Part shown: piece by piece, positions 16,171 to 41,491 of the stretch
Layout: each line of letters begins with the position of its first letter
How positions within the stretch are numbered: position 1 is the stretch's first letter
Assembly: GCA_002633005.1 (NCBI GenBank)
Contig: NMRA01000451.1
Location: 1 to 64,000 of the forward strand
Origin: Phoronis australis
Lineage: Eukaryota; Animalia; Phoronida
DNA: 64,000 bases
Reading direction: 5' to 3'
The notes under the pieces: generated by a model
Seen by the model: the letters and a program-made list of their open reading frames with translations, nothing else
Databases searched by the model: none
What the model was told of the DNA's origin: nothing
Position numbers and translations under genes: made by a program

Positions 16171-16319
16171 CTAGGAAGAAGATGCTGCGGAACCAGATTT
16201 TTTGGCGCAACGGGCGACCACGCACAAGACAATAAGCACACCAACTCCGGCAATCACATAAATGGCGTAAGTCTTCACGAAAGTGCTATTTAAAGGTTCA
16301 CCAATAGTGTCCGTCGAAT
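16171..16319 (-). CDS. Terminal exon of the microexon gene: juxtamembrane segment, TM helix, short cytoplasmic tail
   Basis: Acceptor tctcttccag; phase 1 reads DSTDTIGEPLNSTFVKTYAIYVIAGVGVLIVLCVVARCAKKSGSAASSS*, a hydrophobic stretch followed by a basic stop-transfer (RCAKK). Confidence 0.85.
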
Positions 16320-16576
16320 CTGGAAGAGACATTTGTATTGAAAAAGCACTCCCAAAACACGTGATACTAAGCATCAGCCAGACTGAGCTCGTCAACAGCG
16401 AAGAGCGTGGGGTAAATGGCGGATTTAGGGCATGGTATGAGTAGGGGTATCGGCGAATTTTGAGTGAACTAGACAGTCTGAAAAAAGTCCGTATAGTTGT
16501 TGTGAAATAAGTTAGAATAATAGCAATGTTTTGCATATCATCTTATTATTTACGAAAATTGTCCACTAGAAGCAAA

Positions 16577-16602
<26 letters not shown>
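16577..16602. repeat. (GT)13 microsatellite
   Basis: Read directly. Confidence 0.95.
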
Positions 16603-16607
<5 letters not shown>

Positions 16608-17252
16608 CACAAGTGAGTCTAAGAGACATTTTCTGAGAGATCACATTGATGCATGTTAAGAGATCACTCTACTTAGTATGCAACTGAGTTTGTTCATCAC
16701 AAGAGAAGATCAGCCAGATTTTTTCTTGCTGTATGCCCATGGTTGAGCGGACAGAAGCAACTTTTAATTGAAGCAACAATTAATGTTTTGTAGAAATACT
16801 CCGTGGACTAGATTATGAAGGTTTTCCATAAAAATTAATAATACCCTTATCTAGAAAAAGCAGCCCACTGAAAACAATGAATAGTGAGAATTCGGGTAGG
16901 ATGAAGTTGACAGGTTGTATTGTCGTGTAATGGTGTGTTTGGGTATAGATGTTTTGTAAAAAAAGCAAATATGGCCTCTGATGGGAAGACAACATTCTCG
17001 CTATGCACTGTGTCCAGCCGTGTCGGGTGTCTAATTGATTTTTGACGATTTTAGAAAGAGCAGATCAGAAACAGTGCCCAAAACAGTGAACTTCCGATTT
17101 ACTGCACCTCGACAACCTCACACCGTTGCTTCCGATTCGCTATTTGTGTTACTTTTTTGATAAAATGTCTTTTAAGGGCGTAAAAAAGTACCAGACCAAG
17201 TCAAATGTGTTGAATGTGCATGTTGTGTGAGCTCCAAAACTTAGTCACTCAC

Positions 17253-17273
17253 CTTCTTCGCCTGAATCGCCAT
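17253..17273 (-). CDS. 21-nt microexon, DGDSGEE
   Basis: ttttcctgcgtttgcag|ATGGCGATTCAGGCGAAGAAG|gtgagt; phase 1-1. Confidence 0.8.
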
Positions 17274-17354
17274 CTGCAAACGCAGGAAAAGCATATCAAA
17301 TATATATACAGAATATAATCATTCGTAAGAAAACCATTATTGACAATTCGTAAC

Positions 17355-17363
17355 CTTTTCCTC
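17355..17363 (-). CDS. Candidate 9-nt microexon, GGK
   Basis: ctccttttcaacatgtttctag|GAGGAAAAG|gttacg; frame-preserving but weak donor. Confidence 0.35.
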
Positions 17364-17623
17364 CTAGAAACATGTTGAAAAGGAGATTGGTACATGTACA
17401 CTGTATGAGTGATTATTTAGGTAAGTTTCTATAACCGTGACAGTTTGCATTTTCGATTTTGGGGTCAAACTAAGAAGATAAAATTTTCACTGAAAAAGGT
17501 TGATGTGAACATTGTTTCATTCCAGGTCCCCTGTTTTTTCGAGTTATCTCAATCTGTTTCATTTCGTCACGAGGCCATATCACGTGTCTTAAATGTCAGT
17601 CAATGTGCACGAAAGTTGCTTAC

Positions 17624-17644
17624 CTCCGGCTTGCTGTCCTGAAC
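17624..17644 (-). CDS. 21-nt repeat microexon, GSGQQAG
   Basis: ttgttttgtag|GTTCAGGACAGCAAGCCGGAG|gtaagc. Confidence 0.85.
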
Positions 17645-18631
17645 CTACAAAACAACGGAGTGTGAATTCAGAGTAACCTTATTGACATTCATGTACATCA
17701 TTTTTGCTCACGGAGGCAGCGATTTAGTTTAATTCCGCAGAAGATGGCTCCGTTAATTTTGACCAGAGCAACATCTGGGCCCAGGTGCATAAACGTTATA
17801 CGTCGTATAGCAACAGTGACATCGCATTATCACGCGTCACGTTATTGTTGTACAATGCACCTGACATCAAGCAACAGTTAAATTATCCAGCGGATAACTT
17901 TGAAGTTTTATGCAACCCATCCCTGCAGAACACACCTAACCTCAAGTCATCAAATAGTTTAAATGTTAAATGTCAACAGTGCCACTTTTTCAAGATCAAG
18001 CAAAAAAGAAACAGACAAAAAGAACCAGAAGCAAAAACGCAAGCAAACCAATGTACCCTCAAATGGTTGTATGTTGATTTGCAGTGAATTTAGGTTCCAA
18101 GACTAGGTGTTTCACACTCAATGACTAAGATCATTTGTCGATTGAATTTTGCATGCTTCAAAAGAAGCCATTTGGCTTATACGTTATGCCAGGCACGCAG
18201 AACCATGGACGTTTGAATGTGGAATTTTGGACAGGTATGAGGAACACTCCCTAAACCCATGTTAAATCAAACCAGTATTCATTGTTGCCGGGAAAAGGAG
18301 TCAAAATAAAGGTAGGCTTGAACTACATGTAACAGACTTAAAGCAGGTCTATGTGGGCAATTGTCGACATCCCAAACGTGTCTGCTCATTCCCAGCCGAT
18401 TCCAACTCTAATATATGAAGTACACTCTGATTTGCAATATCTCCAATTCGCAAAGCGCATTCTGCCAAATTAGCAAACTCAGACAATGATTGTGCTGCAT
18501 TCCAAGTCATAAGTGCCTTTGAGCTGTTTCAAGCCTTTCTTCATATCATGAAGAGTCAGAGTTGCATTGATCAAATGCATCTCCAACTGCTCTTGATTGT
18601 TTGTCCAATTAAAATAGTTTCACTTATTTAC

Positions 18632-18652
18632 CTCCGGCTACCGGCCCTGAAC
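18632..18652 (-). CDS. 21-nt repeat microexon, GSGPVAG
   Basis: cttttgtag|GTTCAGGGCCGGTAGCCGGAG|gtaaat. Confidence 0.85.
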
Positions 18653-19368
18653 CTACAAAAGTAGACTGTGTGAATTTAAGAGCGACATAAGTGACACATA
18701 CATTAAAAACGCTTGAAAGTCGGTTTAAGACCATTTCCATATAAGGTAGCGTGCAATTTTTTAGTTAGAGTTTCCGAATCAACAGAGTGAAGCAAATGTC
18801 CAAGAGCCAACATAACTGTGGCAACAAAATAAGTAAGTCATTTAAATACCTTCTCGGTTGACGTCATCAGAGGAAAGTGGCAATAAAAAACTTGAGACCA
18901 GATTATGTGACAAATGCGGAATAAATGAAATTTGAGAAGAAACATAATGTAATTAAGCCATCACTTTCGGAAACGCAATTGGAGGCGCTGCCAAATTAGT
19001 AGTTCCAGGTAAAGATTGTTTCATTCCAAGTCCAATGTCTTTTCTAGTTTCACCAAGAACAAGACAGACTCGAAAATTCTGAGAAAAAGCTCCGTGTGGC
19101 AAGCCTACAGGTTTATACCATTGGCGACAGAGGTACAACTTGTGTTTATTCTGTTGTATACTTGGATGTTGCAGTGCCGGTCGTACAGTACCTCCCACCT
19201 GCAAAGTGCATTCTGCTAAATTGGCAAACTCAGACAATGATTGCTACTTTCTAAGTAAGGAGCCCCTTTCAGTTGTTTCAAGCCACTCTTTATCACGACG
19301 AGGAAGCGTTGCATTTCTCGAATATATCTGCAACTGCATGTTCAGATTCAAATTGTCAGTGTACTTAC

Positions 19369-19389
19369 CCCCGACTCCCGGCCCTGAAC
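19369..19389 (-). CDS. 21-nt repeat microexon, GSGPGVG
   Basis: tttttgtag|GTTCAGGGCCGGGAGTCGGGG|gtaagt. Confidence 0.85.
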
Positions 19390-19688
19390 CTACAAAAATA
19401 GAGTAAACGAATTAACAATACCTACACGGTTGATGTCGTCAGAGGAAAGTGACAATAAAAAACCTGCGACCACATCATGTGATACATGCATAATACACGA
19501 CATCTGAGAACAAACATCATGTAATTAAGTCGTCACTTTCGGAAACGCAATAGGAGGCGCTACCAAATTAGTAGTCTGGGGTAAAGATCGTTTCATTCCC
19601 AGTATCTTCGAGTTGTCTTAATGTATTCCATTTCACCACGAGTCCATGTTGTGTGTCTTAAATTTCAGTCCAAGTCCACGATGCTTAC

Positions 19689-19709
19689 CTCCGGCTCCCG
19701 GTCTTGAAC
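19689..19709 (-). CDS. 21-nt repeat microexon, GSRPGAG
   Basis: ttttttatag|GTTCAAGACCGGGAGCCGGAG|gtaagc. Confidence 0.85.
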
Positions 19710-20659
19710 CTATAAAAAATGGAGTGTGAATTCAGGGTACCCTTATTGTCATAGACCAATTGTCTGAAGGAGGCGGAGATTTAAGGTTAGTTCCGCAGAA
19801 ATTAGTTCCCTCAGTTTTGTACAAAGCAACATCTGCTGTGGGGCAAAACGTGGGAATGGAACGCAATTACAGATTAAGTAGCAAAGTCATCAAATAATTC
19901 AAATATTAACTGACAAAGAGAACCTGAAGCAAAGAAGCAAACAAACCAATACACCCTCAGATGTTTTTAAGTTGATTGGTAGTGAATTTAGACATTGATA
20001 CTTGATGTTTGACACTCGATGACTCAGCTCATTTGCCAATTGAACTCTGCACGCTGCAAAACTTCAGTACTACAAAAGAAGGTATTTTGCCTATATCCGA
20101 AACGTTCAATCGGTACACTAGCCGATGTGCCTATATTTGGAGGTTTTTGGTTTTTAATTAGTGGAATCTTGGATAGGTAAACGGAGCACTCCCTAAAGCC
20201 ATGTCACATCAAACTTTTACTCATTATGGCATCGAAAACGAGTAATAAACTAGGATTGGACTAAATGTTACATAACCGAAGCAGTTCTCCGAGGACTATG
20301 GTCGGTATCCGAAACGTATCTGTTCGTTTTTACACGACTTCAAATCGTTTCACCAAGGACAAGACAATTTAGAGAATGAGCTTCGTGTGACAGGCCTATA
20401 CCAGGTTTATACCTTGACCTCTTGTATTCTGTACACTCCGATTTGCAGTGCCGGTCGTGCATTATCTCTTACGTGCAAAGCACATTAAAACAAACTTGGA
20501 CAATGAATGATATATTCCAGTTCAGAAGTCCTTTTGAGCTGTTTGAAGCCACTCGTTTCATATTATGACGAGTCAGTGTTGACAGTCTCGATTGTCTCTC
20601 CAACTTCACGTTGTTTTGCTCTTGATTTTTGTTCAATTAACAATGTATCAGTTGCTTAC

Positions 20660-20680
20660 CTCCGGCTCTCGGCCCTGAAC
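20660..20680 (-). CDS. 21-nt repeat microexon, GSGPRAG
   Basis: ttcttttgcag|GTTCAGGGCCGAGAGCCGGAG|gtaagc. Confidence 0.85.
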
Positions 20681-21592
20681 CTGCAAAAGAAGGGAATATG
20701 AAGTCAGGACGATATAAGTGTCAACTCAAACGGTTTACAAGGCGGTTTAAGAATAATTCCATAGGACTTGCAACCTTTTCGTACGTACAAACTACTTCCC
20801 GGCAACAAACACTATAAAACCATTTACACATATTCGGAAAGTGACAATAAAAAACGCAAATACATTACAGTATGTGTTACACATAAAATAAACGACATTC
20901 GATACCAATCATAGTTAAATCGCAACTTTTAGGAACCTTTCAACAACCTACAAAACAAATAGAGTGACATTCAGAATGCACTTGCTTTCAAATGTCCAAG
21001 CGCTAACGTAAGCATGGCAACAAACATAATTAAATCACTTGCATAATCGGTTGACGTTATCAAAAGAAGATGGCAATAAAAGTTTGCGTATGCTATACGT
21101 GATACATGCAGATTAAACGGCATCTGACAGCAAACGCAATTAAATCCCATGTGGCAGAGGCTAGAATAAGCTTGCAATTTTGAGATGGTTAGCAGGCAGT
21201 CGAATTTCCCCATGGCTCATAACCATATAAGCACCATAAAGTTTGGGCACTAGAATTTAGCCGAGCGCAGCCTCCCAACTTCATTGTTTTAAATCCAAAC
21301 GAAATCTGCATGCAGCTCTCTCAGCCCTCCGAAGCCTTATCTTTCATTGAGCCTGTTAAATTGTCCTTGTGAGCGGTGAATTGGCGACAGGATTGCCAAA
21401 ACAAACTCAAAAGCCTGAATTCAAAGAGGTTAAATGGTGAACATGGCGGATTTCAGTTGTGCTTTAACTTGTACGCCTGTCGAAGACTAAAGTTTCGAGT
21501 TTCATCAACCCCTATCTGAAAGCCAGGAATTGTACCCCAAATTTGAATGATTGGGGTTTCTAAAATTAACCATAACGCTTAATCGTCGTGAG

Positions 21593-21634
21593 AGACCGTC
21601 CCGAGTTGGTATGTGGTGCAACTCGGGACGGTCT
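21593..21634. repeat. Perfect 16-bp-stem hairpin, probably a mini-MITE core
   Basis: AGACCGTCCCGAGTTG - 10 nt - CAACTCGGGACGGTCT. Confidence 0.8.
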
Positions 21635-23280
21635 GGGGTCTACAGAAAACCATAGTTCAACTGTGAGTCTACACCACTGTGATAAACGAGAGTAGTTTTA
21701 CTTGCTGCGTCAGCTGATGGTATGCTTATCTCTTTTATGACACACAATGTGCGACTGGGCAAAGCGTTTTCAAAATAATGTGGATAAATCAGTGGAGTGT
21801 GAAACCCCTGAGGTCCCTGTCAAGTCCCCACGGCAATTTTACGTTATGTTACCACTTTGTTGTGTTATTGTTTCTTATGAATTTAATTGAAAGAACAGGC
21901 ATATCCTGTATTTGATCTTGACACGATTACATGTACGTGCTACTCTATTTGGAACAATCGGCTTTTGCCGGAAATTCCCGATGTCTGACCGCACATTTAG
22001 TCGCGGGAAATAGCGTATCGGCAACTGCCGGATTTCAAATTTAGGCCTCTGTTAGTATCCCGCCACCGTGGTTCTTCGGTTATAAACAACGTTGTGTATC
22101 TGTCCTATCCCTTACAGTAAATGCCAAAAAAACATGCAGTTTTCAGCAACTGCATTTGTTGGTTTTCTGAAAATGCCACGGGTCAGCCAGTTTGCGGAAC
22201 GCGTTGTTAGTAAGATGCCATGTCGCTCCAGACATTTATTTTTCGCATACACATTTTTAGTGTTACACCAATACAGCACAGTAGTTGAAATCAGGGTTAA
22301 TTCAACAGTATTTAGCAATGCAAAGAGTTGCTGAGATGTCGGAAATATACTCTTACTAAGGGCGCGCACATTTACTGCACGCCACCAAAACAGACTCACA
22401 CGCACTCTTACCACGAAAAAATAAGGCAGCGTTAATAAGTCATCAGAGGACGTTGCCCAGTCACTTGCATTGGACATTGTCTCTGAAAGATTACCACTTT
22501 TGGTCGGAGTCGTGGTTCCTTGGTAAAAGTGTGCATTAGAATACGAAGATGTTCTTTAACCCCGCTTTAACGTTCAATGCAAATGCATTTACACGTTTGG
22601 ATATGGCAACAGTTCACAAACTCCTGTAAACCATTACCCCTGAAACAAAAAATACTTCTTCCATCTTCGTGGAACCTCCAGACTTTTAGCTTGAATCTTC
22701 AACTAACATATCTTACGATACTGTGATAGTTCAGGCGGTTTGGGTATGTATTACAGTAATGGCTAAATTGCCACACGTAAAAGATGTTGTTACAATTTTT
22801 GCCAGCATTCATGATCCTAATTGGCAAAGTGTTGACATTTTGGGCCTGCACACCACACCACGGTCCGGCACTTGTCGAACATAGAAGAGCTGCAGGATTA
22901 CGTCAACTTACACTGACCACAGTGCAACCTACAATCCAGAGCCATATCATAGCTTGGGATCGATTTTTGCCGGTGATATGGGGAAGAAACGTTGTATACT
23001 CGAGAGCCTGTCCATCAGAAGAGCGAGTGGTACGGTCAAGAGCCGTGACGTGAGTCAGTGCTAACTCTTTCTAAAAATTATGTCATCATGATATGTGTCC
23101 CAAGTCGGTGACTTCATAAAATGACTGCAAAACCACCTAATCATCATTTTGCGAAAAAACACAAACACTGAGTGTCGAAAATGCCTTACATTAAACATTA
23201 TAAGGAGTGCCACTACGTTTATGTTACGGGGAAACCAAAAAGACTGACAGCCTGATCTAATTCCAACGTTCAAGCCTGAG

Positions 23281-26005
23281 GTGAGGCGACGTTCACTTCA
23301 AGACAATAGAAACTTATCGTGTAAGTTAGCATCTTATACATTCACTATTCGCGTTGGACCTGTCCACACTCCCAAACAGGCTGGGATTTTTGCACGCGTT
23401 GCTACAGAGATGAAAAACTACAACATTCGTTTGCTGACACTAACCGAGCTGAGGTTGAACACAGTTGGCCAAATTGAAAAACAGAAAGTAGAGACCTTTC
23501 TTTACTCATGTAAAGAAAATGAGGTTAACCCTTGGAGCATGGCTTTGGACTTTTTCTCAATCAAAACTCCACCAACAGACTATTTGAGTGGAACCCAGTC
23601 TCCGACACAATGGTCACATCAAGATTCGCATCCCGTTACCGGCGGGTAATAGTTACACAATATACGCACCCACCAACACTGGGTGATAACAGGTGATGGG
23701 TTGTCATGACCCGGGTATCGTGAGTGAAAATGGCGACTTCTTCACTTACTTGCGTCTACAACAACCTGGTCAGATATAAGTAGCAAAACTTTCCCTCACA
23801 AGAGAGGTCATAAATTAAACCTGTGCCCTGGTGGAAAGAAAAGAACCATATCAATCACTTTCCCATCCGTAGACATTAGATAAGAGCAATGGAAGATGTC
23901 CGTAGTGTGCAAGGTGCCGATATCGACTCAGACCACTATCTAGTTGTTGCTGCATTGCATGGAAATGTGTCCTCTCATAAAATTAGTGGAAATGGCAGTA
24001 TCTATTTTGTCATAAACAAATTACGAAATGACGACACCAAAACGGAATTTGCACTTCGCAACAGGTTCGCTCAATTACAGCCGATTTCACTACAAAAGAC
24101 TTGTGGACCAACATCAAACACACGTGCATTAGTACATGAAGAAATTCTGGATAAAAGCTCGATAAAGAACAAGAAACCACAGATTACTGATTTCACTTGG
24201 AAAATATAAAGAAACGAAAAGTCCTGCTGTCAACTGAGTCAAGACCTGTCTCTAGCCAACGCACAGAACTCTAAATATAGATGTACAAGAACTGAAACAT
24301 GGTAATATGCGCTTAGAGCTGACTGGAAGCCGCTGCCAAGGGAGACATAATGACATTGTACGCCACCATCAACCAATCGAGTGGCCAATGCTCTATACCC
24401 TTCAAACAACTTCAGGACAAGGTTGGTCTGCTAATCACCAATATTGAAGAGCAACTGGTATTCCAGTGAACTCATTTCAACACCATACTAAAATGGAAAT
24501 GTCCCTTAAATCTTCCAGCATTGCCTGAACCGAGGGAAATCCTCGACATGTGTCATCAAGAACAGGAATATCGGGGAAGCATCCGGCATCGACAATATCT
24601 CAAATGAAGAGGGAAGCGAGTTCTCAGTCAATGCCCTACACACATTGCTCAACGAGATCTAGGAAAAATATGAGACCCCACAAGACTGGACCAAAGGGCT
24701 CTTGGTTGAACTGCCGAACGCAGGCGACCTATTCCAACCTAAAAACTGTCGTAGAAACACTTTTCTGACCACACCAAGCAAAATGCGCATCCAGGTAATG
24801 CTTAACGGAATGAAGGAACCTCTCGACCTTAAACCGATTAGATACCAACAAAAACAGATTTTCCAACAGAACGATCCTTTACTGACCAGATTGATACCCT
24901 GAGGAGGACTGTTGGACAGTCCATCCAATTGAGTTCATCACTCCACCTCAACTTTCTTAATGTCAAGAAACCTTTCGACAGTTTTCGACAGAGAAATGAC
25001 CGGAAAATCCTATATTATGGTGTCCCTAACCAGTTTCTGGATGGAATTATAAAACGCCACGATGAGTTCACATGTCCGGTTATTCACAATGTGGACTCAC
25101 TCAGCCATTCCAGGTTGCAACAGGTGTACGACATGGATGTTTACTGTCACCTTTGTCTTCTTGATTGCTTTTAATTGGGTGACACGCACCGCATTCTCCG
25201 CCCCACCAATTGGTATACAATGGGCATTCACCAGCCGTCTTGGCGATTTAGGGTATACAAATAACCTCTTCTCTTCCTTTTAGCTCAGCGACAGCACGAA
25301 ATTTAACTTAAGACTTGCGTGCTCTCGTTTGGAGCCAAACATCAACGTCGAGAAAACTAAGAAGATGAGCATTTACGAATGGACAAAATGACAGCATCTG
25401 AGTGGATGGGAAAGAGCTAGAAGATGCCCAGTCTTCCACCAATTTGTGTAGACAGCATTATGGGTGCAACGCAGGAAGACGTCAAGGCTCGCATGAAGCA
25501 GAAACGTCAACGACATGCCATGCCGAAACGTCAGCGACATGCCATGCCGAAACCTGTCTGGAAGTCCTCTCCCTGACACCTCAAGATCTTGAACTCAAAT
25601 TTCAAGCCCGTCCTGATTCACGGCTTAACGGCATGATGACTCGATAATCACCAATGTTCAAGTCTTAACAAACAGATGACTGAGTCACTAGTGTGACAAA
25701 ATAGTAAATTAAACCATGTAGAATAAAGCCAGATATGAAGTCACAAAAATCCAGATAAAGAGAAGGAGTGGAGGTGGATTGGTCACACGATACAAAAACC
25801 CAATACAAATTACCACCTAGCTTGCCTTAACTGGGACCCCCAGTGGAAACGTGTAATATTGGAGACGAGCTGTGAATCTGAACTCCTTTCAATTGACAGG
25901 TTTTGAAACGAGATCCGAACAAAGGCTACCAACTAGACTAGATGGAAAGCAATCATGGAGGCCGTATGCACCTGAAGGTGTTTAGAGGCATCAGTCAGGT
26001 AAGTC
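23281..26005 (+). mobile_element. Decayed RTE-clade LINE (APE + RT), antisense within an intron
   Basis: APE fragments EMKNYNIRLLTLTELR and DVRSVQGADIDSDHYLVVA; RT fragments LNFLNVKKPFDS and GIQWAFTSRLGDLGY; RTE-like ending WRWIGHT...WKAIMEAVC with a TCAGTCAGGTAAGTCA tail. Confidence 0.8.
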
Positions 26006-26128
26006 ACTATGTATCGGGAACAGAAAAGAAGGAAATATAAACAGTAACTGATGCATTGTAAGATGTGTAGTTGATCTCGGTGTTCTTGAATACCCTTTGC
26101 CCAATTCACACATGTCTAATTGTTTTAC

Positions 26129-26149
26129 CTCCCGTTCCCGGTCTTGCAC
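26129..26149 (-). CDS. 21-nt repeat microexon, GARPGTG
   Basis: ccgttttgtag|GTGCAAGACCGGGAACGGGAG|gtaaaa. Confidence 0.82.
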
Positions 26150-29100
26150 CTACAAAACGGGTAGTACGAATTTAAGGAAACACAGGTTACATCAGATATG
26201 CGTTCAAGTGGATGACTTTACTCAAGAAAAAGAAAATAACAGCAAGTGATAACTAGCAAATGGAAAAAGCACAACCTTCACGCACTCTAAACGAACAAGT
26301 TATTTTCCAAATTATACATGTGTGAGTAAATATTTACAGAAGGCCTGCCAAAAGGTAAAAATTAGAGCTTTTTCAAAACTGATAATCACCATCGTGTAAG
26401 TTTGATATAACGATACGATAAATGAAAAAAATTCCAAAAATAGACTTGCTGTGGTCCAACAAAGACTGAAATATAAAGTACCGTCATAAAGGTAGTACCA
26501 AAATACATGCTTGAATTATTAGTCTTTACTAAATCTGTGCTTTGTATAGTTATATTACTTAAAAAAGCTTGAGATTTGGACCACAGCGCAAGTACAAGTG
26601 AACAATCAGAATGAAACAAAATGATCTAAAAGTTCAAGACACGCAACTACTATCTCTTACTATCTTCAGCTTTGTGTAAACTTTTCAATGCACATTGTAA
26701 CATTTATAAGTTTTAACTTTTAGGAAGGAGTATTAGCCTAAATGACAACGCTGTTCTGAACAAACATCACTTAATCTGTGCTCTACATCAGTTTATGAAA
26801 TCGTTTATATGAAAAGTAATTTTAGTTGCCTGTACTGTATGCGATCTATTGAATTTCTCTGGGGAGAGCTCATTGTACTAGGTAACTTAATTGCCTTCAC
26901 CAAAGATCAGTTTGTAACCAATTCTCTGATTTATATCTTTGTTCCATAACTTCCCAAGACAAAAACCTGTTTTGAGTGTCTGACATATCGTTTACATTAA
27001 CTATGACGGCCTTGTAGGTCCCATTGAAACACGCAAATTTGCCATTAATCAAAATATTTCTATTTAATCAAGCAAAGTCTGCTCAAAATGCGCAATTAAT
27101 CAATGTTGACTATTTCAGTGATAGTTGCGTTAGAGAGAATTAGCAGCGGCGTGTCCCTGCCAAATGAAAGTCTACCTATTAACAGAACCTAACTACATCC
27201 GGTCATTCGGCAACCTACCAGACTCTACATTTGAAAACAAATGCCTCTGAACTCTGCCGTCTTTCACCTTATTCTCTCCAAAATTAGTAACTTTCTCAAA
27301 ATACCATGACAAAGGCTCAGAGACTATTAGATCAGTGGTCTTTTGTTTTCTGTATATCTGGACAGTTTAAAAATCATCAACTAAAACATTAATTTTGTTT
27401 ACAGTAACGCCTGTTGAAAGTGGTTGCAAGTTGCAAGCAAAATGTTTCAGATCTTAGAGAAAAAATGAACAACCCCACGACTTATCTGTAAGTATGAAGT
27501 CACTAAAATGATTTGAGGTACATGTAGCATGCTAATTTTTATTAATATGAGTGTGTATTGACTTAATTACATTTGGTGTTCAAAACATTAAATTAACCTT
27601 GTTGGTGGTATTAAAAATGTTTAGTGTCAGCTATGATCAAATTTAAATTTAAATTTATTCAGATTTTGACAAAATAATGTTTCAGTAATACATGATTTGC
27701 ATGCTGTCATTTTAAAATCATTCCTATCTAAAATGATTTTAAATTTTCCATCGACACAAAATAACTCAAATAGCAGTATCAAATATTCATTTCAATTTGC
27801 TTTAAAATTCTAAGAATTTGCAATTTATCATTGCAGATTGATCTGAGGTGACATAAGCAAGTTGCTCATGCACAAAAGGTCTTGGATAAGCCTGTGGCCA
27901 CATTACGGGATTGTTATATCAAATAGCCAATCAGGAGCTTCTGGGGGTTTCTTCTGTACCTGATTATGTTGCTAAGAACTCCCTGCAACAAACGTGGTAC
28001 CAGCCAAGAGTGTGAGGTCTCAATCAGCTAGCACAGAGGAGGCTACCATGATTGTAAACAGTTAGTAGTCCATCAGTCCTAGCCTCGCTTTGGATTTTCC
28101 CTTAATATTCATGAGGCAATATTAAGAAAGGTCTGTTGTCAACACGCTGCAGAAAACAATTGGAATTGGAGCAAGTCGGCTGGAAAAATAAAAATTGCTT
28201 TTAAGCAGTTTTTATTTTTTATTAAAATAGCCGTCGACCACAAATCTTTAGACGAATGATCCACTTTTCGAAAAACGGGATATCGGTGTGGACATTCCGT
28301 TGCTAGCACACTTTTTGCTTTCTTTCAGGAACGTCCGGGAAATACGTGAGCCCCTCCCCCTATTCTGGTCACCGATAATTAAAGTGCATTATGATATAAA
28401 GGAAAATTTGCTCTCACTCCCGGGAGGACGATGCACTGATTAACAATTGCAGAAAATCTACTTTTATGATCCCCATTTCTGTTCCGTGACTAACGAGAAA
28501 AAACGAGAAACGAATTTGGCCTTTGTGCTCATATTGGTGCTATCACAATATCCCTTATGTTGATAGATTTATATTTGTTGTTGGTTGAAAACACCAATGT
28601 CTTTAGAAATCACTTCGGGGTATACTGATGTTGTACGACTCAGCGAAATCGAAAGTGACGCATAGCATCGCCAGTGACTTGCCCTAGTAACGAACACAGA
28701 ATCGTTTCCCGTACTAGTCCGATCGATATAACGTGAGCAAAAAATACCAATTCGTTTCTCGTTTTTAGCCATTTAAAAAGACAAAGTGTACCTGTACGGA
28801 AATGTAGAAGCGTAGACAAATGTTCAAATTTGCTAAACTTTGGATAATCGTACATGTATCTCAGGAATGACTGATGGAATCCTCAACTAACTTACATATA
28901 CAGTGTACTATGTTTATGCACTATTCTCAAAATATCTTATAGGAATTTGTTCCTTAAATGTTGCACTTGTGCATGACGGATTCCATGACCTTGTTCGAAA
29001 AAAAAATAATTTTGATAAATCAATAACCTGAAATGATAATTTAAAAAAGTATCAACATTTTGAGATTTTGTATCAAGTGAAATTAGGCAATGCTATTACC

Positions 29101-29737: not shown

Positions 29738-29792
29738 TATGTATGATGTATGTATGTATGTATGTATGTATATGTATATGTATATGTATATG
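29738..29792. repeat. (TATG)n/(TATATG)n microsatellite
   Basis: Read directly. Confidence 0.9.
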
Positions 29793-31452: not shown

Positions 31453-31653
31453 CCGGCAGCGGATAAAGGGGTCCCGTTTTTTGTTTTATTTTTTTTTAAT
31501 CCACCGACAGATTTTCTGAACAGAAGGTCCACACCATATCCCCAACACCCGCAACTTTCAGGCCGCCTGTGCAAATACAATCGCGCTTTGCCCAATTCCG
31601 CGAGGCAACATGTTGCCCCCCCCTCTTCTTATGACATCTTAGATCCGCCACTG
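31453..31653. mobile_element. Degenerate CAGTGGCGGATC-family MITE
   Basis: Right end AGATCCGCCACTG intact; left end decayed. Confidence 0.5.
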
Positions 31654-31699
31654 TTATACCAGACGTGCGAGCGCATGTGGGTCCATTGCACTGATCAGT

Positions 31700-31865
31700 T
31701 GAAGCCATTTTTTATGCTTTATTATTGACATAGAGCTAAGCCGAGCTGAGAATCTTGAAACCTGATTCACGGGTTTAGCAGTTTGACCCAGTGGTATTCT
31801 AATCCACGACCTTGAGCAAAGAAAGCAGGCACCTATCACAATAGGCCACCCTGCCTCATCCAGGA
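31700..31865 (-). mobile_element. tRNA-derived SINE head (degenerate)
   Basis: Minus strand GGTGGCCTATTGTGATAG...GGTCGTGGATTAGAATACC resembles Pol III A and B boxes; similar relic at ~61400-61450. Confidence 0.4.
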
Positions 31866-32049
31866 GCTGCATAGGCTATAGGGTGTAATTTGTGTAGACG
31901 TTTCTCTGCGTTGCGAGTTATTGTAAAAATGGGTCAGTCTGTAGCCAACAACGGTAAATTCATAAAAGACTGCGTGCAGTGCAACTGAAGTTCATAAACA
32001 CTAGACTTCCAAAGGCTTGATCTGATTTGACATTTCACATGATATTTCA

Positions 32050-32795
32050 GAAGGACATTACTTAGTATCATTCTTGCCGAGAATGTCGTGAGAGGGCGGC
32101 TAGTTAACAGTGAAGTTCTCGAGCTGGTCTATGAAAATTATAGTGAGGGAGATGCTGTGATGTACACTGAAGGATCGGTTAAAAGAGGAAAAAGATCTGG
32201 ATGGGGCTATGTAGTCAAGGTGGATGGCAAAATAGTTGCAGAAAATGATGAGGCATACGAGAGCACGACATCTAGTATGAGGATGGAGGAGGTTGGTGCT
32301 TAAAAGGCACTTTCGTGGCTACAGGAAAGCACTTACATGTATACCTGCGCAGTTATTGTGACAGACTCTCAGAGCATGCTGAGAAAAATCGAAAAGGGAT
32401 ATCTCAAACCCGAGTGGCTGCTGTATTTACAAAACAGTGGACTGGGAAAGCTTACTTGGATATTCTCACCTGGGCATGCCGGGGTCGCCGGAAATGAGAA
32501 AGTTGACAAGTTAGAGGGAAATGCACCAATACAAGGCGCCCTCAGATTTGGAGAGAGTGAGATTCTTGGAGCGCTTAGAGACGTGGAGCCACATGAGAAT
32601 AGGGATGCATTTGACAGGATGCAGCTGTTTGGATATCAGAGAGGCTGTGGTGTTGGTAGCCGTTTGCATGGCCGGGCAAGACGACTCTGTAATCAGCAGT
32701 TCGGGCTGGAGTGGTTAGTCTGACTTGATGACGTGGAAAGCCGAGCATCTAGGGGTCTGCCGACGCTGATTCTGCACTCAAATAATACCCAAGTA
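32050..32795 (+). mobile_element. 5'-truncated LINE fragment encoding RNase H (I-group, Ingi/Nimb-like)
   Basis: YTEGS..SGWG..SSMRME, IVTDSQS, WIFSPGHAGVAGNEKVD; frameshifted; related to 58352-60052. Confidence 0.8.
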
Positions 32796-33449
32796 ATGCA
32801 CGGGTACCCTTTTGTTTTATTAGGAGTGGGATTGGTTCATTATGTACCCTAAAGGTTTAATGGCGGAAATTTAAAAATCATGCGTCCGCTTACAAAAAAT
32901 TAACATTGAAGAATAAAAAAAACTTCACACCCCTCTGGTGTTCTAGTCCCATGTTTGCAAATAAGTTGGTTGTTTTTTCATAGACTGCAATGGACTTGGC
33001 TAAGATGGTCTAGATATTTTGTGTGGCATACATTCGACATGAAGTGAGTGTGTATCCTGCTGTTGAATTGCGAGATAGATTTTGAGTAGGTCATTTGGTT
33101 ATTTCTGGGCTATTAATGTGATCTTTATTGATGTTAAAGGTTTTACCAGCATTCAATTTATTTGTACACGAATATATTAATCGACTATGTCGGTGATCCA
33201 AATCCCGACGAAATGTGCGCATTTTGCTGAGATAGTAACGGCCTGATTAGATCCAGCGAAGATGACTAATTTGGTTAATTTGCACACTAGACAGTACAGA
33301 GTGCTGTAAACAAAATCATATTTAACTAATCAGAATTTGAGAAAGTCCTTCCTGGTACACGTGGTAGATCCAGATTGTACGATCAACGCGGGGGTAACAA
33401 TGTGGGTAACCCATAGCTGACGGACAAAACGTACTAAATGTCTGCTTAC

Positions 33450-33464
33450 CTGGTCGTACCGGAG
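33450..33464 (-). CDS. 15-nt microexon, APVRP
   Basis: tctacttcttacag|CTCCGGTACGACCAG|gtaagc. Confidence 0.8.
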
Positions 33465-33876
33465 CTGTAAGAAGTAGAATCAGCAATCAAATTTCGGGAA
33501 TACAAGAAAAGGTTCACAGTATGATTAACATATTCACGTCTGACTTCAAGCAAAATCACAAAGTTTTAATCAATATACAAAACACGCGTTGTATGTAAAT
33601 CCCATTTGGACAGGATAACAAGATCGACCTTTAGCGTACGAGCGAACAAAAAACTCGACCGAACAACACACTAATGAGAACTAAAACAAACATAGACAAC
33701 ATTACTGTTTTTTGCTCCTCTCAGAATGATCATGTTTAAACGGATATATTAGTCTCCAATGGCTTGAGGTATTAAATAAAAGAATCTCAGTTTGTTGCTT
33801 TCATTGATCACACCCTGACTTAACCTGACAAGGTATTTGTAAGGAATGTTTGATTTACTACACATTTCGGGCTTAC

Positions 33877-33912
33877 CTTTCGTGGTTTTGGTCGTGGTCG
33901 TGGTTGTTGGAA
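33877..33912 (-). CDS. 36-nt Thr-rich microexon, VPTTTTTTKTTK
   Basis: cttgttttttccgtag|TTCCAACAACCACGACCACGACCAAAACCACGAAAG|gtaagc. Confidence 0.85.
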
Positions 33913-34961
33913 CTACGGAAAAAACAAGAATCACATTCTACATACACTGTTACCATGCAGCGAAACATTTTGAAGGGGTGGCATGCTCTTGAAGAAAATC
34001 AATGTTTTGATCCTCATATATAATCCATAACTAATTTGATTAATGAAAAAACGAATTCGACCTTTACCCTCTTAAAATTGGTATCGTAATGTCCCTTATC
34101 TTAATAGGCTAATGTTCCCCCTATACATGTAGTCCGAGAGCCAAAGATCATTTTCTTCTTAACCTGGATTTGCTGGAAAAGTTTTCATTATTTGGGGGTG
34201 TGGCAGTTGGTAACCCTCAAGCGTTTTTAAAATATGCAAATCAACGTCCCCGTTATGCAAATTGTTTGCTTATAAATTCCTTACTAAGCAGTGCATTTTT
34301 GTTTTCACCCATGTTTTTATTGTCAGCAAATTTTAGTGTAGGCTTTGAGGAGATACGTTGTGAATTTGCATAGTTTATGCAAATTGAGGCCGCCATTATT
34401 AAAAATTTTACTTGTTCAATAAGCTATGGTACCAGGAACCACTGGTGATTTGTCATATTTGTGCTTCTATGATCAATTATTTTAAAGAAATCTATTTGCA
34501 AGTTTTTTCATGATATATTTGCATACATAATGGTTATTAAGGTCACCATTTTTTCGAAATTATTTGTTTGCCTTTAACCTCCTTACCAAGAACTGCAGAG
34601 AGCTATTTAATGTTTTCGCCTATACCTCCATCATCAGGAAATCTAATAAAGCTTGTTTGCCGCCATTATTCAAAGTATAATTTGACTTATAGCTGAAGTA
34701 CCAGGCACCATAGACAAACTATACTTTTACATCTGCACCCGTGTTTCTGTTGTAAATGAACTTCATGAAATCCGTTTGCAAACTGTTGCATGATAAATTT
34801 GCATATCTTTCACAAATAAATGGCACCATAATTATACTGTTTCTGCTCATAACTTGTTTACGGGTATTCATGCAGATTATGTTAGTGTCATATCTCAGGT
34901 TTTCATGGTCATCATGAATTTGAATACTTCGGTCTCGGTCGACACGCGTAATAATGTCTCG

Positions 34962-37900
34962 TAGTCTAGTTGCCAGCCCAATAGCTCCCATAGTGAACCC
35001 TGCAATGTTGATTACTATAAAGTTTTTTTGTTGAAGAATATTAAGTATGATCAAGAGAAAAACATTAGCTTGGTTGCACTTAGTGCAACTTTGAGCATTT
35101 TTTGCAATTCAAGATGGCGGATTCTGCCATTTTGAATTTCGACCAACTTTGTTTTTTTCAACTTGATGACTAACAGGGTCATGTAATACATTGTTTATAC
35201 CATTTTCTGTGATGGGAGTCCATTTCAGGTGTTATTTTAGTAATACGGGGTAATCTTCAGAGGTCAAAGGTCAAAACTGCCTAGCAGCCTTCTGACATTT
35301 AGTTTTTATCTTCAAAATGCTCACTATTACATACATGTACTATAGTGGGTCAAACAGTTTGACACAAGTTTCATGAGGGTTGTATGGCATGGAAATGCAC
35401 ATACGCTCAGCAGTTCAATGCTCTAGTATGGTTACTGCCCATTACTCCAAAAATAGCTCTACTCCGAAGAAACCTACGTCTCCTCATATATGAACGCATT
35501 TGTTTCATTTGATAAAAAATATATGCACGCACCCAGTCTAAAATATGGGAGCTCAAATTTTTGGCAATGTGGACCTTTTACAAACTAAAAACATGGGAGT
35601 CAAAAACGGGATGTCACGTTCAGGGACATGAATTGTGTATTCGCGCCTTTTCAGTGGACTTTTGTCTCGTTTTCTCGGACTTTTTGTATTTTTGAAGCGG
35701 ACGTTTTTGCCCACGCATGTAATATGATACATTTTCTTTCGATCAAGTGAACTTCAAAAAAGATAGGATACAAGAGTTGTTAACTACCTGTACAAAGACA
35801 GTAATAATGGCAGAAATGAGTCATTGGACTTCATTGTCCAAATTTATTTTTGTGTCGGTATTTTGTTAGTTAGTAACAAAATAATAAGCCATGCGTGTAA
35901 TTTTGAGAAAATTTAGGAAGATCGAGTAAAAAAAGTTGCAGTAACGGTGATTTTTCGGAGTAGAGGAGCTTAGGAGTAGCTGTTTTTTCGGAGTGGTGGC
36001 ATGGGCCATCGGAGTATTAACCGGCTACACTCCAGTGTAGTCAACGGAAAGTCTAGAACCGATGCTCTGTAGGTTTACAATCTCTTTACAGCCATGTTGT
36101 AACTCCATGTCTACTCAAATGGGGCCAAGTCTTATGAAGAACTGTTGGTTTACCTAAAGATGGTCCTTCAACAAAGAGACCTGTTTCTTCGTAGCGGGTC
36201 ACCATAATTATGTACGGCAACTGCACTTGTGTAGCAGTCTTCAAAATAAACTAAACGACGTGGAAATTATTTTGGCCTAAAATACAATAGCGCCTCCATG
36301 CACGTTGTCTTAATTTTAACAATTTGCACGTTATTCCATTCATAAATAAACAATAAGTGACTAATCACAATAACGTCAACCTAAACTATGATAAAACTTT
36401 GACAAAATCGCGATAAGCATTCGATTAAGGTGCCAAACATTTCTGACAAGAACTTCATACCAAGTTTAGCAGCTTGACAGAGTTCTTTCGAGGTTTATTT
36501 TGAAGTTTGCTGTGTGTGGAATTAACGCCTGTCCAATAAAGTCTAAAAGCTCCACTCGAAGCTGCACACGTGGATGACAAGATTGCAGTACCTGTTGACC
36601 TATTATAATAACAGGCATACTGTATATCAAAGGAGTAAAAGGTTCTGGGGTTATAAGAAACCTTTTAATGAGAGCCGAGCAATTAAGTGGAGATCATAAG
36701 TCATGTGGAATGAAGGTGGTGAGGAGCAAACGTCACGTAGTGGAGGACAGGAAAAGACTAAGAACGAGAACGGAGTAGTGGACCTGAACGAGGATGACTA
36801 GAGAAAGGTTGCAGAGGAGTTAGAGAAGCGCAGACACCCGCTTACTGACCAGCTGTCATACCTCCATAACTTCTGCAATCACCGAGTAGATTCCAGAACG
36901 AACTGGCCATTGGGCATGAGCAGAGCAGTCAAGATTTTAAATTTTGGTAAGCAGTGAATGTCACAAAGCAATTAAGACAAAGTCAAAATGCTGGAGATGC
37001 TGAAGAAACGTGTACTGTCAAGGGAAGAACATGGCGTTGAAACTTTGTTCAGTTGCCTATTAGTCGTAAGACAGCAATGTAGCACTTAGCTGATATCTTT
37101 CAGTATAAACTTATTGAGTCCACTCCCTATAGCCCAGATCGGCAAATACAGCAGTGTGAGGAAGGGTGATAATGCCATTTTGGTCAAACATCTTCGATCG
37201 CATTATGTCACAAGTAATTCTGCTCCGAAGGTGGTGTTGGTTGGAGATTTAGGTAAGTCCCGGCACTCTACTAGCCTCCTACCCTCTTGCTTGTGAAACA
37301 ATTATTCGCTTTCCGGAAAAATACGACCACGAAGATCTCTACACAAAGGACCATGAGACGATAACATGAGGAAAAGTTGAGGAATTTATGCTAACCCCGT
37401 TTTAAAACATCCCTTTTGCCGCTAAACTATTCTATATAACGCTATGTTAAACAACCTTCTATTTGTATGAAGATATTCGCTTCTATACAACATCGAGTGG
37501 GTCAACAAGAGCCACTGTGTAAGTATACATTGTGAAGCAGATCTTGTATAGGTAAATGTTGAAAGTGATGGAAGAAGGCACCCACACCATCAGAATCACT
37601 TGTGACAACACTGACGTCTCCGATCTCTTGATTTATGGGACGTCTAATATGCCAGTAGACGCCAAGACTCGAATGGACAAGTCGAATGGTAGTTTTTCGG
37701 ACAAGTGCCGCCAACATGAGAGGTCACAAGGCGTAAGGGTATTGGACAGAGAAAAGTTCTTGGTTTGAACGAGCTGTCAGAGACGCCAATAACCCCTCTC
37801 TGAGTTGACACGGAGGAGTCAAATTGAACTTATCGCAGTCACTGACTCTTGGTCCATTACCTTGAAGCTGTTCTCCATGAACACAGACGCATGGGGTGGT

Positions 37901-38701
37901 GAAATTTTCTGGAGAACCAGTTAGTCATCAATCCTCAGTAGACGAAGACAGGTGGCTCCGCAAAGTCGGGAACTTTATTTTATTTTATAGTAAGTTCCAC
38001 AAGTCATAGTTTATGAGTTTTCCCTGGATTACCAACAGCGCCCATCCTAGTTTACGGATATGGAACCTGTACGGGTTACGCGTAATCTATACTCATACTC
38101 CTGTTCAGTATGAGAAGGCAGTGTGGCTTAGTGTCCTTCCTCTACGCAAGAATGTGTTTTCGAGTCACACGGGCCACCTTTATGGTCGCCTGAGACAAGT
38201 CTCTAGATACTGAGCCCTGTATCAACTAAATAAAGTATAAAGATGGTCCAAGGTGATCAGTGCGAAGGGCCTTTCTGAGCGGCATGCCTAGGTCTGGTAC
38301 AACAACATTTTAAACTAGTTATTGAGATGCTGGGAGGATATCTTATTCCAGTATTTAACTATCCCTTATTCTTTATATAAGGGAATCACAGAAATGACAA
38401 TTCCCGCATTGTCCATAAATTTAACATTCGTTGCGCAAAAGAGATGATTTTCCTTGTTTCAGTTCTACTTGACCTTCAACCTCTGATTGACCTGGACTTT
38501 GACCTTGCATCCATAAAATATTATCAGAATGGACTCTCCGTCCCAAAAAACATTGTAAACCATAAATTGCAGGATCCTACACGGTATCATGTTCAGATTG
38601 TGAAAATTAGGCGAAATTCAAGATAATAAATTAAATAAATTTCCAAAAGAAAACTTTACAGTATACAACATTGCAGGGTCAACATTTTGGCAACTAGACT
38701 A
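34962..38701 (+). mobile_element. Academ-type DNA transposon, internally decayed
   Basis: TIR TAGTCTAGTTGCCA / TGGCAACTAGACTA; 3-bp TSD TCG; residual LSPLP..SSVRKG and CEAD..TIRITCDNTDVSDLLIY motifs; empty-site paralog at ~8002-8085. Confidence 0.8.
35421..36034. mobile_element. Inverted-repeat element nested in the Academ
   Basis: Left TACTCC..CTCTACTCCGAAG motifs mirror right TTCGGAGTAGAG..GGAGTA motifs. Confidence 0.45.
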
Positions 38702-39538
38702 TCGTGGGATATTAGTTCATGTACGTCAATCTCAGTACGTTTTATGTATGGAAACGGGCGTAAGTACAAAGTTTAATGTTTTTAAGCAAAATGTACTTGA
38801 ACGTTTAAAGCCTGGAATCCAGTCTGATTTTACATATTTTAACTAAATACTCGAAGCGTTTTTATTAAAAAACAAATAGAACTTTGTTGACATCAAACCT
38901 TGTTTGGAGGATTTCAATCAGGCCTCGTTCTAGCGCCAGCAAATTTTTAATTGGCGTCGAAGTTTAGTGATAAAAGGAGGATTCAAGTTGTAAGAACTCG
39001 TTCAATGCGTCATAGATAGGACGTGATTTTTCTTGGTGGGTGGCCTTTCCCTGCAGTTGTCGTGTACCTTGCTTAAGGCGTGGTTAACCCTTGCCAATTT
39101 AGGAGTCGTCGGACGGAGTCTTCTAATGGTGCTTCAAGCCTTTGAGGGTTTTTGAGGGCTACACAGCATTATTTTTTCAGAGAACTAAGTGGGAAAGTCG
39201 TTTTAATGTATGTTAAGAGATAAAACCGGGTTTGGTGACAGTTTTTGTGTACGTAATCCACATACGTGATGATAGCAGTGGGCGGTAAGCTGTAGAACAT
39301 TTCGTGAGCACTTTCACATGGCAAACTATTAAAAGGGATGCAGTTTCTTTAAAAAAGTACGATGTTGATGGAGAATAAACTGTCGCATGCGTTGAGCAGT
39401 AGCTATATAGCGCTCTAAACAATGTCATAATGATTCTGCATGTATGTCCACCTTTGACGTAGAGGAAGGACACTAAGCCACACTGCCTTTTATGTGAACC
39501 TTTGGCTGACGGACAAAAAGTATCGAATACCTGCTTAC

Positions 39539-39553
39539 CTCGGATAGTCGGAC
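39539..39553 (-). CDS. 15-nt microexon, GPTIR
   Basis: ctctgtttcttgtag|GTCCGACTATCCGAG|gtaagc; flanks homologous to the 33450 exon. Confidence 0.8.
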
Positions 39554-40479
39554 CTACAAGAAACAGAGGTAACCATCAAATTGCAGGAAGACAATAAAGT
39601 GTTCACAGTAGCATATTAAAAAACTGCCCTCGACGACGTGGATAGAGCAATTGCATACACAAACCTACACAAGTGTGATACAGTCCAAATGCCTTATTTT
39701 CGGCTAACGCCATAGTCAGTAAGAGAGCATTGGCGTCAATAAATGTATCTTGAACAACCTAATAATACATCAGTGTTTTTCATATATCAGCCCGTTGGTA
39801 TCAACAAGAGTTACAATTCTTCACAAATGACGTGACCTATAGGTCAAGTCTGGGCAGCATGCTGTGACTGAATACTCGTACAAGGAAAACACGCATTTCC
39901 AAATGCAGGTGGGTATTTTCACCTTTAGGCAGTGGGCTGAAGCTCATAGCAATATATTGTGAGTACTTGGTGGGGCAGCCTGAATTTTTGTATGACAAGG
40001 TAATACACTTATAATTCAACTTCAAACCAGGTAATACTATGTGTTTTTGTAATCTTTGTGTTGAAGTCCAACTGTGATTACCAGTTGTTTTTCACTTGCT
40101 CAACCCCTAGGCTTCCCAGGCCTTAGACATCACCCTTCTGCCATGTCCCTAGCATAGATGGTGGCCATGTCACAGGCCCTCCATATGCCGGAAGCTTACG
40201 TAGAAGGCTGCAAGTGTAACTACATTGAAGTGCCCGGCGTCCCTGTCATAATCTGAAGGGGATGCCCCTGCCCACTTTGTCAACCGTAGATTGCCAAAAT
40301 TGTAAACCCATCGTCTACAGTTTGAGGATATGATTTCAATCACTGCACTGATACATTAGCTGACTTGTTTTCAGCTGCATCAACTAATCTAATTGTCAAA
40401 CGTTCAAATTTTGTAGGCGAAAGAACAGAATGCATGTAAATTTGTTAGGATGATAGTAAATCAATTCCAAATAAGCCTG

Positions 40480-41150
40480 TCTGAAAAAATTGCATACCAA
40501 AACACCGGTCGTTAAATGCTGAATTAGTGTTAACGGTTCGGATTTTTTCAGACGGACTTGCATCGCAAGCAGCAGCTTAGTCTGATAACCTGAATGTGCA
40601 AATGAAATTCAAGTTTAACGACCTTGTGGCTTTAAAAGTGAAGTACCACAGATCATGCTACGAAAATAGAAAGACAAATGGATCGTGAAGAGTGAAGAAT
40701 CCTTAGTTGTCCGTTGCCTTAATTTCAAAAGTAAAGCAAGAGTTTGAAGCAATGCTTCAGAAATGTGGTCTGCATGATGTTATTTGGACAGGCGTTCTTA
40801 AGAAACGACTGCTGAAACTACCCACAGTTGCAGTTTGTGCCTAATATGTTAACGTGGATGGACTTACGTTTGGACTACCGAGTCGACTTTAAGTTCTCCC
40901 ACACACACCTTTACCTAGAAGAACTTGCACTGGTGCAACATATCCCAATTTTAAATGGAGCAGAAGTTATCGCTTTGGTGCGTGAAAACGAACAGCTAAT
41001 GCAAATGATCTATTGCACGCTCCGCCACTTGCGAAGTGTCGACAAACAAGCAATAAGTTTTACCCGGTTATGTGTTGTTTGTCGGGTAAAATGGCGGCTT
41101 GGAAACGAAGATGTGTCAAAAATGCTGCATTCTAATTGATCAGTCACGTC
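40480..41150 (+). mobile_element. Academ-like transposase N-terminal remnant
   Basis: NDLVALKVKYHRSCYEN fits the DLVAxExKYHxxCY motif. Confidence 0.5.
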
Positions 41151-41479
41151 ATCACTCAAAATCCTGGCATTAGGTCAATTACGGGGTGCCAAATAAGACC
41201 AGCGTTTATGTAACAGCAGCTAATCGTACTTTTGCTTAACCTAAGGTTTGCGTCCTCGCACGAGAAGTGGTGCAAGTTACCCTGGAACAAGTTATCTTAC
41301 CTCAATGGAGCAGGTTACACTTGTTTAACTAACGTCAAAACAGCCTCCAAACCTAGCAAGAACTCGTTCCAAGAGTGTCTTGTTCTGAAGTAAGTCTGTG
41401 TGTAGAGCACTTTGAAATTTTCTGGGTTAAGTTAATAAGAGTTTTACAGTATCCAAGCTTCAATTTAAGGTGTACTTAC

Positions 41480-41491
41480 CTGAGTATCTTG
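41480..41491 (-). CDS. 12-nt microexon, (T/A)RYS
   Basis: ccttttcttctttttcag|CAAGATACTCAG|gtaagt; strong sites; phase 1-1. Confidence 0.8.

Follow-up and report, generated by a model that had tools for sequence, protein, structure and literature searches.

A two-version gene of Phoronis australis with a likely VWA-type head and a stalk encoded by eleven microexons

We analyzed a window of 64,000 nt from the phoronid Phoronis australis (contig NMRA01000451.1 of assembly GCA_002633005.1, positions 1 to 64,000) and found that a chain of 11 microexons of 12-36 nt on its minus strand belongs to a real gene, which is confirmed by RNA and is larger than first noted. The gene spans about 48 kb and has 13 coding exons, comprising a first exon, the 11 microexons and a last exon; together, 63740-62975, the microexons and 16319-16171 make up 1140 nt, which encode 379 residues. 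The product is a predicted type I, single-pass membrane protein, laid out as a head extending to residue 255, 75 microexon-encoded residues, a transmembrane (TM) helix at about residues 348-366 and a short tail. We consider it reasonably probable that this is a polymorphic recognition or adhesion protein of the cell surface, with a VWA-type head and a microexon stalk, and that its versions, which are likely alleles, have divergent heads and different sets of stalk units.

The original prediction placed the gene at 16171..41491. The exons given for that interval were right, and a scan for short exons with a pyrimidine tract plus AG acceptor and a GTRA-type donor returned all 11 microexons at the positions claimed. 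However, the first exon, at 63740-62975, had been missed and lies outside the interval. RNA data with the same species label comprised three raw-read runs and a contig set (X1 to X4), with about 18-19% of each raw run read. They were mapped on the first exon and on 14600-21200; microexon 5 (26149-26129) lies outside both regions. The coding exons and the evidence for each are as follows.

63776..62975, minus strand: first exon, ATG at 63740; open reading frame (ORF), RNA depth and loose read ends
41491-41480, minus strand: microexon 1, 12 nt; scan and first-exon loose ends, with one differing letter in the X2 consensus
39553-39539, minus strand: microexon 2, 15 nt, a duplicate of microexon 4 with common flanks; scan, repeats and RNA
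33912-33877, minus strand: microexon 3, 36 nt, encoding a Thr run; scan, and its start in first-exon loose ends
33464-33450, minus strand: microexon 4, 15 nt; scan, and 56 X1 reads that join it directly to microexon 6
26149-26129, minus strand: microexon 5, 21 nt, with a weaker GTAAAA donor; scan, bypassed in 56 X1 reads
20680-20660, minus strand: microexon 6, 21 nt, Gly/Pro unit, flank type A; joint 19707>20658
19709-19689, minus strand: microexon 7, 21 nt, flank type B; joints 19387>19687 and 19707>20658
19389-19369, minus strand: microexon 8, 21 nt, flank type A; joints 18650>19367 and 19387>19687
18652-18632, minus strand: microexon 9, 21 nt, flank type A; joint 18650>19367
17644-17624, minus strand: microexon 10, 21 nt, flank type B; joints 17273>17624 and 16319>17624
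17273-17253, minus strand: microexon 11, 21 nt, acidic Ser-Gly unit; included in roughly half the reads across its junctions
16319-16171, minus strand: last coding exon, with sequon N341, the predicted TM helix (about residues 348-366), a tail of about 13 residues and the stop

All 11 microexons are multiples of three, lie in phase 1-1 and end in G. Therefore, the gain, loss or skipping of a unit leaves the frame intact, and each of the 2048 possible microexon subsets gave a stop-free frame. As had been predicted, phase 1 joins the microexons and the last exon without a stop and phase 0 stops in the 18632 exon (residue 59 of 124); phase 2 stops at residue 82. Under strict scan criteria, which were chosen post hoc with the exons already known, the minus strand held 12 symmetric candidates and the plus strand 3, compared with 1.0 +/- 1.0 (maximum 5) in 100 shuffles; the plus-strand candidates were rejected because their number is at chance level. 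Hydropathy, on which both the signal peptide and the helix are predicted, reached a 19-residue mean of up to 1.74 at the N-terminus and 2.67 over 19 residues in the TM stretch. The earlier view was right in that there is one spliced gene whose microexons form the stalk part of a protein predicted to cross the membrane once. UGC motifs, a feature of the neural microexon programme, precede only 2 of the 11 microexon acceptors. A donor-like site lies at 16161, 10 nt past the stop, and read depth drops sharply below 16147; an additional non-coding 3' exon may lie downstream of the last coding exon.

The first exon contains an intact 260-codon frame (63740-62961) with a hydrophobic start and a phase-1 donor at 62974, and it lies 21.5 kb upstream of microexon 1, from which it is separated by an intron of 21,483 nt. 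Its 5' untranslated region (UTR) is short, with RNA ends piled at 63761 and 63772, and it encodes a predicted signal peptide, a likely VWA-type domain (about residues 23-217) and a small Cys loop. Stranded reads on this exon numbered 799 in X1, 634 in X2 and 0 in X3, at depths of about 150, 110 and 0. At 62975, loose read ends run into microexons 1, 2 and the start of 3 (72 X1 and 48 X2 reads), with an agreement of 0.92 and 0.84. The drop in depth at this point and the reads that continue into the microexons identify the ORF as the first exon of the gene. A stand-alone secreted gene of 260 residues was considered and rejected, as depth falls from about 145 to about 8 beyond the donor.

Within 14600-21200, where 15 of 36 joint rows were examined, reads linked microexons 6>7 (19707>20658; 30 X1, 32 X2), 7>8 (19387>19687; 26 X1, 28 X2), 8>9 (18650>19367; 24 X1, 28 X2), 10>11 (17273>17624; 20 X1, 24 X2 and 2 X3) and 10>last exon (16319>17624; 20 X1, 23 X2). 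Additionally, 56 X1 reads pass from microexon 6 directly into microexons 4 and 3, and the end of microexon 3 appears, with variant letters, in an RNA loose end at 20683. All listed joints are GT-AG and the reads are stranded. Altogether, 10 of the 11 microexons were seen spliced, and transcripts do join these exons at the boundaries claimed; microexon 5 was not seen among the rows listed, which come from regions that exclude 26149-26129 itself. The depth of the last-exon bin was 32.5 in X1, 20.4 in X2 and 0 in X3 and X4. X3 contains reads of the repeats of this region and next to none of the gene, which suggests that expression is restricted. Gene finders would split a gene of this kind into a stand-alone ORF and lost fragments.

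Two versions of the head are expressed. Among the X1 first-exon reads, 402 of 799 agree with the window at 99% or more. The reads of a second class depart from it at many sites, and their share at the variant sites is 47-61% in both runs. The versions are about 9% apart in the head and are expressed at about 1:1; their only indel is an in-frame 3-nt deletion. X1 lists 74 variant sites, of which 40 were displayed and 36 coding sites were classed; those left out are two intronic sites, one UTR site and one fixed site (63676, codon 22), at which all reads differ from the window (105/105 X1, 113/113 X2) owing to either an assembly error or a private variant. The classed sites comprise 29 nonsynonymous and 7 synonymous changes, a nonsynonymous-to-synonymous ratio (pN/pS) of 1.14, which differs from a ratio of 0.1-0.3 (p 2e-11 to 4e-4). 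Among the displayed sites, 24 of 30 changed codons are nonsynonymous in this comparison of two versions only, and no stop or Cys change occurs. The differences cluster at residues 78-108 and 167-189, and codons 1-70 carry mostly synonymous changes (4 of their 7 changed codons versus 2 of 23 in later codons; p=0.016, post hoc). Variant letters also occur in the consensus loose ends at microexons 1, 2 and 3. We take the two versions to be likely alleles. For scale, alleles of another species, a lancelet, average a synonymous divergence (dS) of 0.070-0.075 with a dN/dS of 0.067-0.089, according to an excerpt of the source (PMC4284660).

The stalk also varies, and a single invariant isoform, which the original prediction had named as the check on variability, is refuted by the presence of more than one stalk form in RNA. 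Microexon 11 is included and bypassed in equal measure (20:20 reads in X1, 24:23 in X2). A second stalk class uses the joint 17646>20658 (32 X1, 26 X2 reads) and carries 6-like, 8-like and 10-like exons without 7 and 9. Its middle exon starts with CT (plus strand) where microexon 8 of the window has CC, and shows two further letter variants (19:12 and 12:13). In contrast, reads of the 18650>19367 joint agree with the window at this letter (both=3). This class likely comes from the second version, with a different Gly-rich unit array, an assignment read from the tables of an aligner whose rules cannot be inspected. The reads of 17646>20658 and 19707>20658 stand at 32:30 in X1 and 26:32 in X2, and the ratios of stalk forms did not differ between X1 and X2 (Fisher p 1.0 and 0.47). 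Given the non-window letters and the 1:1 ratios, part of the stalk variation is likely allelic. Across the stalk forms, the microexon-encoded residues range from 47 to 75.

The original prediction envisaged skipping of any subset of microexons. The frame permits it in every case, and some true skipping is probable because microexon 5 is bypassed in more reads (56 in X1) than one version would likely give; a portion of the transcripts likely lacks microexon 5 or 11 through skipping. The splice sites of microexon 11 are sound and yet it is bypassed in 20 and 23 reads, rarer skips may sit in the other 21 joint rows and in 303 further loose-end rows, and the first-exon loose ends fall short of full agreement. 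However, if each gene copy yielded many stalk forms, so that combinatorial skipping were the main source of variety, the few forms displayed would not be expected to stand near 1:1 in both samples, nor the short Gly-rich class to carry letters foreign to the window, and the splice sites are strong. Free combinatorial use of any subset was not shown, and we regard skipping as an improbable main source of the variety.

Two blocks of duplicated sequence were found at the locus.

17529..20763, minus strand: tandem exon-intron cassettes with microexons 6-10, intron blocks 66-83% identical
43001-42458, minus strand: decayed first-exon duplicate that covers the 3' half and the donor flank, 76% identical, with stops, frameshifts and a changed donor

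The intron flanks group microexons 6, 8 and 9 together and 7 with 10, and pair microexon 2 with 4. Flank scores within 6/8/9 and 7/10 were 82-130, with some type A pairs at 37-56, compared with a shuffled maximum of 28-32. Microexons 2 and 4 with their flanks form a family (D7) that is 72% identical over 114 nt, and six of the 21-nt exons share 14-19 of 21 positions with one another; no further near-copies of microexons were found in the window. By these sequence comparisons, the stalk array grew through tandem duplication of exon-plus-intron cassettes. In excerpts of the cited reports, unequal crossing-over of such cassettes is established for exon 2 of SmPoMuc (PMC2576457), and the cytoplasmic exons of BG genes expand and contract among alleles (PMC4046983). 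The decayed first-exon copy sits within intron 1; it suggests that head exons arise and decay at this locus, and additional copies may be present past 64000. In intron 3, a perfect 32-nt inverted repeat (38115-38146 and 39458-39489, 1.3 kb apart) begins where the flank similarity of microexons 2 and 4 stops and likely marks a transposon with terminal inverted repeats.

The identity of the head was approached through its predicted fold. A single-sequence model of residues 21-223 shows strands alternating with helices, with a predicted local distance difference test (pLDDT) score of 39. When it was ranked against 48,161 chains, the top 5 matches were all VWA domains (collagen VI, collagen VII and integrin A/I domains; Z 5.4-5.6, root-mean-square deviation (rmsd) 4.1-4.6, 149-157 of 203 residues aligned), and 15 of the top 19 were VWA by title or known identity (Z 4.9-5.6, rmsd 3.7-5.1). 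No meaningful fold match came from an earlier model of the head (240 residues, pLDDT 36). On visual inspection, the head sequence fits the VWA pattern and is bounded by cysteines 23 and 217. Because the Z scores are middling and no Foldseek match is significant, the model makes a VWA-type domain only likely. The DxSxS motif of the metal ion-dependent adhesion site (MIDAS) is broken, the first strand ending in D33 followed by T, A, R and G; this motif is not required of all VWA domains. No Pfam family matched the head at E<=1, phmmer against PDB (E<=10) returned no VWA chain and 4 weak unrelated matches, and 192 pattern matches in metagenome contigs yielded none that was confirmed. The gene is an orphan with no relative in the searches run.

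Several observations weigh against a polymorphic recognition protein of this design. The joints 9>10 and 11>last exon were not among the joint rows examined. The VWA call comes from a single-sequence model of low pLDDT with Z scores under 8, Foldseek with this model gave nothing at E<=0.001, and no head homologue appeared among 488 candidates of near length (E<=1e-3) or 1218 longer ones (E<=10). The pN/pS value, drawn from only 36 of about 70 coding sites, is not different from 1 (p=0.47) and so leaves room for relaxed constraint, while the value of 2.6 for codons 71-255 is post hoc (p=0.15). X1 and X2 share an identical pair of versions and may derive from a single animal, which gives two haplotypes only, and the second version could be a paralogue.

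If the second version were a recent paralogue elsewhere in the genome, the gene would belong to a small family with a fixed stalk per gene. A head divergence of 9% is high for alleles, and the decayed copy at 43 kb shows that the locus duplicates. However, there are two classes only, near 1:1 in both runs and both absent from X3, the second version is not the 43-kb copy, and its scaled synonymous divergence, which we put at about 0.08, resembles that of alleles in highly heterozygous invertebrates; we therefore consider a paralogue unlikely. Gene conversion from the pseudo-exon into the second version was also rejected: 12 of 20 second-version sites match the pseudo-exon, 7 match the window and 1 matches neither, a pattern for which an outgroup relation accounts, and the loose-end letters at about 63223-63234 are unlike the pseudo-exon.

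It is likewise doubtful that this is a young or decaying lineage-specific gene under relaxed selection, in which the differences are drift and the stalk is an inert spacer. Such an account would suit the pN/pS that is not significantly above 1, the lack of a homologue in the searches, the broken metal site and the adjoining pseudo-exon. Against it, none of the displayed differences closes the frame of either version, the sole indel is of 3 nt and the cysteines are unchanged, codons 1-70 change mostly synonymously, and 13 exons over 48 kb are well expressed with strong splice sites.

We favour a polymorphic surface protein and propose a putative mechanism for it. The likely VWA-type head would be held out on a stalk that is first Thr-rich and then Gly/Pro-rich. 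The two versions would carry different Gly-rich unit sets, likely through unequal crossing-over, and heads that differ mostly by amino-acid changes; this difference was seen in the reads, and its allelic nature is presumed. Partial skipping of microexons 5 and 11 would act on top of the allelic differences. As a result, the binding face, the reach (47-75 microexon-encoded residues) and the glycan load may vary between individuals. O-glycans are predicted on the Thr run of microexon 3. Ser-Gly sites occur in microexons 6 and 8-11, and the acidic one in microexon 11, which best fits the glycosaminoglycan motif, is a candidate glycosaminoglycan site, such that the 1:1 use of this exon could toggle a glycan chain. 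The tail is not long enough to hold a known signalling motif, and the protein would therefore serve in adhesion or as a ligand and not signal by itself. A recognition or adhesion role is likely from the layout and from the amino-acid divergence.

We compared this gene with known systems as excerpts of the cited papers describe them. Schistosome micro-exon genes (MEGs), to which the original prediction likened it, share a run of symmetric microexons between long introns and length variants, and have a signal peptide and a secreted or anchored product, features that are predicted here; SmVAL6 joins an ordinary domain to seven small exons, and some mature MEGs have a dN/dS near 1.1 (PMC4350168, PMC4015677, 10.1101/2023.06.21.545858). 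However, the coding regions of MEGs consist mostly of microexons (PMC4350168), up to 75% (PMC4015677), and MEGs are described as confined to flatworms and as owing their variants to skipping. In the present gene, microexons make up 225 of 1140 nt, or 20%, the remaining 80% lies in two ordinary exons, variation is likely tied at least in part to the gene version, and a globular head precedes a stalk placed next to the TM helix. Given the share of 20%, this is not a schistosome-type MEG, and the likeness holds only loosely.

In SmPoMuc of Schistosoma mansoni, a short repeat exon is duplicated with its flanking intron, pseudogene copies lie nearby, and repeat number varies by unequal crossing-over and splicing, with a predicted change in glycosylation (PMC2576457). 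SmPoMuc is a secreted multigene family with homogenised (>93%) 9-residue repeats (PMC2576457), whereas the present gene is a single membrane-anchored one with older, diverged 7-residue units and a likely VWA head. Chicken BG proteins are polymorphic, cross the membrane once and have a single binding domain, and their genes contain many 21-nt exons that vary in number between alleles; those exons encode cytoplasmic heptad coils behind an Ig-V domain (PMC4046983). In contrast, the 21-nt exons here precede the TM helix and encode extracellular Gly/Pro units, and the gene is not of the chicken BG/butyrophilin-like kind.

Sponge aggregation factors are highly polymorphic and include VWA domains in single exons with phase-1 introns (PMC5400394), and Hydractinia Alr and Botryllus fester are likewise described as highly polymorphic surface recognition proteins. 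Unlike these, the present protein has no Calx-beta, Wreath or Ig domains and no sequence match. By fold ranking, its head likely resembles VWA/I-domain proteins, including the A-domains of collagen VI/VII, integrin I-domains, anthrax-receptor-type proteins and TRAP/MIC2 adhesins, the last of which share the layout of a VWA head, low-complexity stalk, TM helix and short tail. It differs from them in lacking a Pfam or PDB sequence match, in the broken MIDAS and in the division of its stalk among 11 exons of 12-36 nt. CD44 and CD46 have optional stalk exons that carry glycan sites, as the present stalk is predicted to do. The search listings of the literature contained no gene with this combination.

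Three known routes to surface diversity would meet in this locus, namely a binding domain that diverges, duplicated microexon cassettes that are gained and lost, and probably a degree of skipping. It is a concrete candidate in a field where invertebrate allorecognition, gamete-recognition and immune loci turned out to be highly polymorphic orphan membrane proteins, and a natural test case for the splicing and between-haplotype evolution of chains of 12-36-nt exons. We also speculate, as an idea with rather low odds, that it is a new locus for the recognition of self/non-self, gametes or pathogens. Each allele would then match a diversified VWA head with its own microexon "bar code" stalk, and a single 21-nt exon would turn a glycosaminoglycan site on or off. 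If true, a MEG-like diversifier would serve a host surface receptor outside parasitic flatworms.

Head and stalk variants cannot be phased to one another with short reads. Two minor joints of the first exon were also observed, one of which leads to the following exon.

41688..41630, minus strand: minor alternative exon with an in-frame stop; 4 X1 reads from the first exon, 3' boundary inferred

Its use would give a head without stalk or anchor, that is, a soluble head, or a decay target. In X2, 4 reads join the first exon to a sequence about 84% alike (by eye) to about 55880-55741 on the minus strand, probably a cryptic exon of the other version.

The window also contains repeat copies that are 85-94% identical, at 44891-46068, 56031-56185, 57962-58351 and 60053-60674; the copy at 58-60.7 kb is interrupted by a retroelement. 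This remnant (58238-60019, plus strand) has a frame of 593 codons that matches reverse transcriptase and RNase H, and its relatives are 42-54% identical. Other retroelement remnants, judged from ORF translations, lie at 56261-57919 (minus strand), 8771-13877, 23248-25647 and 32043-32723.

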